From the NCBI RefSeq assembly GCF_003334385.1, contig NZ_QOWN01000009.1: 64,000 bases of DNA; one strand, given 5' to 3'. Position 1 is the first letter of the stretch, and every line of letters begins with the position of its first letter. This DNA is from Escherichia coli (GTDB taxonomy: Bacteria > Pseudomonadota > Gammaproteobacteria > Enterobacterales > Enterobacteriaceae). The translations under genes were made by a program, and so were the position numbers. Positions 52,242 to 52,392 of this stretch are shown piece after piece. The notes under the pieces are model-generated. The model was not told the origin of the DNA. It searched no databases and worked only from the letters and a program-made list of their open reading frames with translations.

Positions 52242-52268
52242 TGCTGGATAGCACCGTCAAGCTAAATT

Positions 52269-52328
52269 CCGTACTGAACGGTCCCCTCGCCCCTTTGGGG
52301 AGAGGGTTAGGGTGAGGGGAACGTACGG
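52269..52328. repeat. GC-rich palindromic intergenic repeat (BoxC-like)
   Basis: ccgtactgaacggtcccctcgcccctttggggagagggttagggtgaggggaacgtacgg: nested inverted repeats; resembles the E. coli BoxC repeat family as I recall it. Confidence 0.5.
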
Positions 52329-52353
52329 GATGTAAAATTCAACGCGCCAGCAT

Positions 52354-52391
52354 CGCCGGATGCGATGCTGGCGCATCTTATCCGGCCTACG
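52354..52391. repeat. REP element between yhfS and frlR
   Basis: gccggatgcgatgctggcgcatcttatccggcctacgg. Confidence 0.8.
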
Positions 52392-52392
52392 G

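Follow-up and report, generated by a model that had tools for sequence, protein, structure and literature searches.

The 151-bp spacer that separates the convergently oriented yhfS and frlR (positions 52242–52392 of the window, that is, of the whole 64-kb stretch of DNA analyzed here) very probably holds one BoxC element and one REP element, 2 known and independent enterobacterial repeats that are juxtaposed only at this locus, with the BoxC copy having served as a recombination substrate and with predicted roles of the repeats at the RNA level. The window represents K-12-like Escherichia coli DNA and corresponds to MG1655 in reverse orientation. Over 50 kb, the 2 sequences differ by 13 single-nucleotide polymorphisms (SNPs) and one 13-bp indel, none of which falls within the spacer. 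The spacer is delimited by the stop codons of both flanking genes, namely, the TAA at 52239–52241 that terminates yhfS (51156–52241, + strand) and the frlR stop codon at 52395–52393 on the − strand, and the coordinates given in the initial annotation were thereby confirmed.

Two structured units, a GC-rich unit of 60 bp and a REP, account for approximately 107 of the 151 bp (approximately 70%), whereas positions 52242–52268 and 52329–52343 are not repetitive; the spacer is thus mostly repeat, but its earlier description as almost entirely repeat was overstated. Neither unit can be ascribed to chance, given that shuffles of the window predict 0.00 occurrences of the core pattern of the GC-rich unit, the 6 REP tails observed in the window compare with an expectation of 0.21, and the spacer folds with z-scores of −5.6 (+ strand) and −6.2 (− strand) relative to shuffled sequence. 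A 51-aa open reading frame at 52257–52412 (− strand) is merely a translation of the repeats, and the spacer requires no new gene or RNA call. The RefSeq record of MG1655 carries no repeat_region features at the spacer or elsewhere in the 50 kb and hence provides no independent annotation of the REP.

The GC-rich unit, including its outer arms ccgtac (52269–52274) and gtacgg (52323–52328), spans 52269–52328 on the + strand, which is exactly the 60 bp attributed earlier to a nested palindrome. The core, CCCCTCGCCCC-TTT-GGGGAGAGGG-TTA-GGGTGAGGGG at 52283–52319, is built of 3 blocks, one pyrimidine followed by 2 purine, and the long arms of the unit are only 73% complementary, so that the palindrome label fails to capture the three-block (triplex or G-quadruplex type) build of BoxC. 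The E. coli TMECO consensus, 5'-CCCTCNCCC N3-6 GGGNGAGGG N3 GGGNGAGGG[G/T/C/-]-3', describes a motif equated with the BoxC of the 1990s and with the PIT (potential intrastrand triplex) element of Hoyne and Maher (Holder et al., NAR 2015, PMC4666352). A regular expression of this consensus matches exactly at 52284–52318, followed by the terminal G at 52319, and the resulting core (52284–52319, + strand) is of type A with one mismatched triplet. It comprises the block CCCTCGCCC (52284–52292), a loop (52293–52297), the block GGGAGAGGG (52298–52306), the TTA of the second, type A loop (52307–52309), the block GGGTGAGGG (52310–52318), and the G; the purine part also fits a four-G-run G-quadruplex motif. 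The very same locus has been catalogued as TMECO 15 (NC_000913 3504892–3504857, sequence CCCTCGCCCCTTTGGGGAGAGGGTTAGGGTGAGGGG, with frlR at 73 nt and yhfS at 41 nt; PMC4666352 supplement), the coordinates of which map to 52284–52319 of the window, as well as HPGQ 38, an HPG1-class HPGQ (Kaplan et al. 2016, PMC5100583). Judged by its sequence, the unit that had been called BoxC-like is BoxC itself, already known and individually catalogued: it shares with the BoxC/PIT/TMECO/HPGQ family the consensus, the type A TTA loop with one mismatched triplet, the intergenic position, and the variability among strains described for family members, and the element shows no difference from it. Single-stranded BoxC is predicted to fold as a hairpin, an intrastrand triplex, or a G-quadruplex. 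Type A mm oligonucleotides formed triplexes in vitro with a Tm of 74°C (PMC4666352), and in vivo DMS footprinting of PIT/BoxC, as cited in the same paper, detected no triplex.

A blastn search with positions 52267–52335 as the query identified the BoxC family in every one of 5,426 complete E. coli genomes (5,426/5,426), at 1 to 33 places per genome (median, 17), and the copies at other loci match only about 52273–52328. This span fits the 56-bp length of the BoxC unit. Alignment of 10 other copies, all intergenic, yielded the conserved core CG.AC.GTCCCCTCGCCCCTT.GGGGAGAGGGTTAGGGTGAGGGGA, and the outer arms ccgtac and gtacgg proved to be peculiar to the yhfS–frlR locus. The identification as BoxC survives the objection that the palindrome might be without relatives elsewhere in the genome, since the unit belongs to a dispersed family. 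The notion that the unit is a terminator hairpin unique to this locus and only fortuitously similar to BoxC, which the locus-specific arms would favor, is refuted practically beyond doubt by the exact fit of the core to the family consensus, the copies in every genome, the alignment with 10 of them, and the entries in 2 published catalogues. When 100,044 species-representative genomes were scanned for exact matches to the junction between BoxC and its right flank, GGTGAGGGGAACGTRCGGGATG, only 2 chance matches appeared, both in unrelated coding sequence of environmental MAGs; at this level of stringency and in this dataset, no BoxC–REP block was detected beyond E. coli.

The second unit is a canonical REP (palindromic unit), GCCGGATGCGATGCTGGCGCATCTTATCCGGCCTAC, at 52355–52390 on the − strand: the pattern GCC(G/T)GATG ... 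CTTATC(C/A)GGC matches 52355–52386, and CTAC follows at 52387–52390. The element thus stops 2 nt before the frlR stop codon, at which it had been said to end. Its sequence on the frlR-sense strand is GTAG-GCCGGATAAGATGC-GCCA-GCATCGCATCCGGC, and its stem arms (52355–52368 and 52373–52386), which are 86% complementary, begin 6 nt past the stop codon. In common with other E. coli REPs, it has the 36-nt imperfect palindrome GCCGGATG...CTTATCCGGCCTAC with the GTAG/CTAC end, an extragenic position at the 3' end of a gene, and further copies in the window; REP-only matches also occur at other loci in other genomes. E. coli REPs are recognized by the REP-associated tyrosine transposase (RAYT). What sets this REP apart is the unusual stretch of 11 nt immediately upstream (52344–52354), which is complementary to the interior of the REP, so that the inner half of the REP and its upstream complement can form a perfect 13-bp hairpin with a 5-nt loop (52344–52356 and 52362–52374), mutually exclusive with the canonical REP stem. 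With one complete REP and an 11-nt fragment, the unit is a single REP and not a BIME, which comprises at least 2 complete inverted REPs and a linker. The initial annotation had treated the 2 repeats as a composite, but none of the 8 other K-12 BoxC loci (0/8) has a REP within 150 bp; the idea of a recurrent BoxC plus REP module was therefore rejected in favor of a local juxtaposition.

Comparison of the 5,426 complete genomes revealed 5 states of the locus. The intact block lies between yhfS and frlR in 2,862 genomes, and in 91 genomes of the CB209 type, the same order is preserved with BoxC cut by 52 bp and the REP intact. In 2,105 genomes, yhfS is followed directly by yhfL, the frl operon and the whole block being absent, whereas in 341 to 342 genomes the yhf operon is absent and trpS is followed directly by BoxC, the REP, and frlR; about 25 genomes displayed other or unresolved configurations. 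A chimeric query for trpS adjacent to yhfL, with both operons absent, found no match (0/5,426 genomes). The deletion of the CB209 type removes 52287–52338 (+ strand) between TC/TC microhomologies and leaves the remnant GGACGGTCCCC next to the intact REP. The frl-less genomes lack window positions 52243–57484, encompassing the block, frlRDCBA, and the region upstream of frlA, and carry instead approximately 30 unrelated bp between yhfS and yhfL, with sequence identities of 89% to 100% among these genomes. The frl segment, including the whole block, is present or absent as a unit. The other variable segment, 44543–52277, extends from yhfZ to yhfS plus the left flank of BoxC and is absent from 341 genomes, a group consisting of O157:H7, O55:H7, and a few other strains. 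These states place the block on the boundary of 2 independently variable segments, moving with the frl side, and strongly support the proposal that it marks a junction between operons. Neither BoxC nor the REP is required, given the genomes without the block after yhfS and those without BoxC.

Several strains display further erosion of the 2 operons. In strain FCI56 (locus L007, 5916–6972), IS1A stands in place of the 5' part of frlC, of frlB and frlA in their entirety, and of yhfL, which represents another, independent route of erosion of the frl segment. Annotated pseudogenes include frlD of EDL933 (L002, 3947–4732; internal stop), yhfT of O145 strain RM9872 (L024, 9100–10001; frameshift), and yhfS of AST19 (L026, 1–294; frameshift from an insertion of approximately 44 bp), which suggests weak selection on the 2 operons in several lineages. 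Expression of yhf and frl is poor under standard conditions.

The junction of the yhf-less state can be compared at the nucleotide level with a second BoxC copy, which some strains carry on the other side of the yhf operon. The trpS–yhfZ spacer (window 44543–44831; L005, 4137–4404; L006, 4137–4295) exists as 3 alleles in E. coli: the K-12 allele contains a BIME of 2 inverted REPs (44576–44609, + strand, and 44637–44668, − strand; within 44576–44668), the allele found in 1,525 genomes contains BoxC, and that of strain R32_14_1F is devoid of any repeat. A hairpin with a T-run upstream of yhfZ (window approximately 44691–44714) is kept in all 3 alleles, with small sequence differences in R32_14_1F. 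In strain JNEC-KY180, 2 direct BoxC copies located 7,699 bp apart bracket yhfZ through yhfS, and E2865 and 2011C-4315 also carry both copies, as judged by matching coordinates. The copy in the yhfS–frlR spacer is identical to that in the trpS–yhfZ spacer over a 43-bp segment, ACGGT-core-A, at 52278–52320 (+ strand), which is the crossover interval of the O157-type trpS/frlR junction. A three-way alignment showed that this junction passes from the left flank of the trpS copy through the shared 43 bp into the right flank of the frlR copy, and the recombinant spacer, predicted to measure 21 + 35 + 74 = 130 bp, is also 130 bp long between trpS and frlR in EDL933. The switch of flanks inside the 43 bp and the agreement in spacer length are the signature of a crossover within BoxC, and the O157:H7 and O55:H7 allele, read from its nucleotide sequence, is the exact product of such an event. 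The initial annotation had listed recombination hot spots among the functions of repeats of this kind, and the role of BoxC as a recombination site is strongly supported by this junction.

Two routes to the O157-type junction are equally possible. An intrachromosomal deletion between direct BoxC copies would remove the 7.7-kb yhf operon; alternatively, gene transfer could have replaced the segment, with BoxC as the anchor on one side and homology in yhfL/cysG on the other. The latter route is made plausible by O145:H28 strain RM9872, in which the trpS spacer allele is likewise of the BoxC type and the arrangement is trpS-BoxC-yhf-yhfL, with frl absent. Relative to the K-12-like window, the right flank differs at 1 of 1,400 positions in TUM9757 and at 40 in O157, and the flanks of the 4 sampled yhf-less strains (EDL933, TUM9757, OkiPb01695, and 1504D004) differ from each other by 1.1% to 2.8%. 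The occurrence of the same junction on such divergent flanks could reflect independent events or breakpoints recurring at BoxC, and proves neither.

TMECO loci have been reported to be unusually variable in comparison with control loci, and recombination between 2 TMECO sites was proposed only "in principle" (Holder 2015, PMC4666352). What the present analysis adds to the BoxC literature is a case of inter-copy recombination described at the nucleotide level, together with a 52-bp internal deletion allele. The O157:H7 and O55:H7 strains, a major pathogen lineage, offer a clean natural example in which an operon of 7.7 kb was lost or replaced through a crossover in a BoxC repeat of 36 to 43 bp, and thereby testable support for the published statistical link between BoxC motifs and genome variability. 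The BoxC copy is also prone to small local deletion, as evidenced by the 52-bp deletion in 91 genomes. A broader possibility, which we put forward tentatively and regard as somewhat doubtful, is that BoxC copies act as portable crossover or fragile sites at which operons are repeatedly deleted or swapped, their potential to form non-B DNA (a triplex or G-quadruplex on the lagging-strand template) raising the rate above that of plain 43-bp homology. The yhf and frl cassettes between trpS and yhfL, with one 43-bp junction recurring on several divergent backgrounds, would be a case in point; if true, this would be the first example of inter-TMECO recombination at the nucleotide level. From the coordinates and the geometry of replication, the purine-motif strand of BoxC lies on the lagging-strand template and hence would be transiently single-stranded during replication, which is compatible with structure-provoked slippage, such as might have produced the 52-bp deletion.

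The same observations could be read as traces of a mobile element, with BoxC being a (former) MITE-like or att-like element and a dedicated recombinase, instead of general homologous recombination or replication slippage, moving the yhf and frl cassettes. Occupancy of the spacers does vary from strain to strain, as illustrated by the BoxC, BIME, and empty alleles between trpS and yhfZ, 2 identical direct copies bracket the yhf operon, the crossover is precise, and an identical junction occurs on divergent backgrounds. However, 43 bp of identity is sufficient for RecA-dependent recombination, the boundary of the frl segment near yhfL is devoid of BoxC, and the 52-bp deletion displays only the 2-nt microhomology typical of slippage. 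Furthermore, the family alignment contains neither target-site duplications nor terminal inverted repeats, and the elements are not associated with transposons, phages, or plasmids (Holder et al., PMC4666352). Nothing supports a mobile or site-specific BoxC positively, and we consider it highly improbable; homologous sequence shared by 2 BoxC copies remains the preferred explanation for the crossover.

At the RNA level, folding of the 2 strands, a comparison suggested in the initial annotation, showed the BoxC hairpin to be more stable on the yhfS-sense strand (−34.2 kcal/mol) than on the other strand (−27.3 kcal/mol; computed Watson-Crick folding), a difference that is due to G-U pairs. Both strands yield a strong REP-derived hairpin, the more stable one on the − strand (−33.4 kcal/mol vs. 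−30.7 kcal/mol on the + strand). The BoxC hairpin would lie in the 3' untranslated region of yhfS. On the yhfS-sense strand, neither hairpin is followed by a U-tract, and termination there would consequently need Rho or something else. In frlR-sense RNA, the 13-bp hairpin grows to 16 pairs, with GAAUUUUA downstream, and may constitute a weak terminator of the frlR message. As in an intrinsic terminator, a GC-rich hairpin is located at the end of an operon and a short U-run is present on the frlR-sense strand; in contrast to one, there are only 4 consecutive U residues, GAA intervenes between the stem and the U residues, the other strand has no U-run, and the hairpin is a copy of a repeat family. 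A terminator scan identified a single weak site on the − strand (52355–52340), against 1.1 expected by chance, and nothing on the + strand.

Could the block nonetheless be a selected bidirectional terminator or insulator that separates the convergent yhf and frl transcripts? The convergence of the genes, the very stable hairpins on both strands (z-scores of −3 to −6), and the 16-pair stem with its U-run on the frlR-sense strand would fit such a role, but both units are copies of dispersed families rather than locus-specific designs, the yhfS-sense strand offers no U-tract, and the terminator scan showed no excess over shuffled sequence. In addition, 2,105 genomes have no block after yhfS and another 91 have lost BoxC, and reporter tests of PIT/BoxC, in the account given by Holder et al. 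(PMC4666352), found neither promoter nor terminator activity. We therefore regard a selected terminator or insulator as unlikely for the block as a whole, although the REP hairpin may have a dedicated role of this kind. In view of the published tests, in which BoxC acted neither as a promoter nor as a terminator and left no triplex footprint in vivo, we assign no regulatory role to BoxC, and a selected role of this type is not needed to explain the data.

The REP, in turn, could act on the frlR message in 2 ways. REP hairpins shield upstream mRNA from 3' exonucleases, and the REP-derived hairpin, as the 3' structure of the frlR message, could confer such protection here, by analogy with other loci. 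REPs located less than 16 nt from a stop codon have been described to down-regulate translation (Liang et al. 2015, as referred to in PMC12306157); with a REP stem that starts 6 nt after its stop codon, frlR is a candidate for this effect, and the REP may dampen its translation. Membership in naRNA4 (RF02564), a REP325-derived nucleoid-associated RNA with which the spacer has the REP sequence and hairpin in common, was rejected: in an Rfam scan of 51500–53200 at a permissive threshold, naRNA4 scored 31.7 bits against a gathering threshold of 59.5, and only one REP is present. Apart from this sub-threshold match and noise, the scan of that region returned nothing.

The O157 strain EDL933 carries changes at 52342–52343, 52349, and 52372, in or beside the REP-derived hairpin. 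The substitutions within the hairpin, 52349 A>G and 52372 C>T, both create G-U wobbles on the + strand and would be C-A mismatches on the − strand. Taken together, the changes keep pairing on the + strand, with a stem longer by 2 pairs; 2 events are too few to conclude that RNA structure is under selection.

Other observations concern the surroundings of the locus. In BoxC-type alleles, the trpS stop codon is followed by 15 nt, TATCAAAACGCTCGG (L002, 2986–3000; L005, 4137–4151), that resemble AACAAATACGCCCTCGG by the yhfL terminator (window 57486–57505), a likeness that may be due to chance or be the footprint of an old trpS|yhfL junction. The similarity between TATCAAAACGCTCGGA after trpS and AACAAATACGCCCTCGGA near the yhfL terminator was too weak to be accepted as a target-site duplication. 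The 13 SNPs relative to MG1655 are located between window positions 14001 and 60000, and the window is not MG1655 itself. The 13-bp indel falls in the nirD–nirC spacer at approximately 60198, at a site where AAAATAAAACAAA is duplicated in tandem in MG1655. Finally, a further inverted REP pair at 9203–9289 forms a BIME-like cluster.
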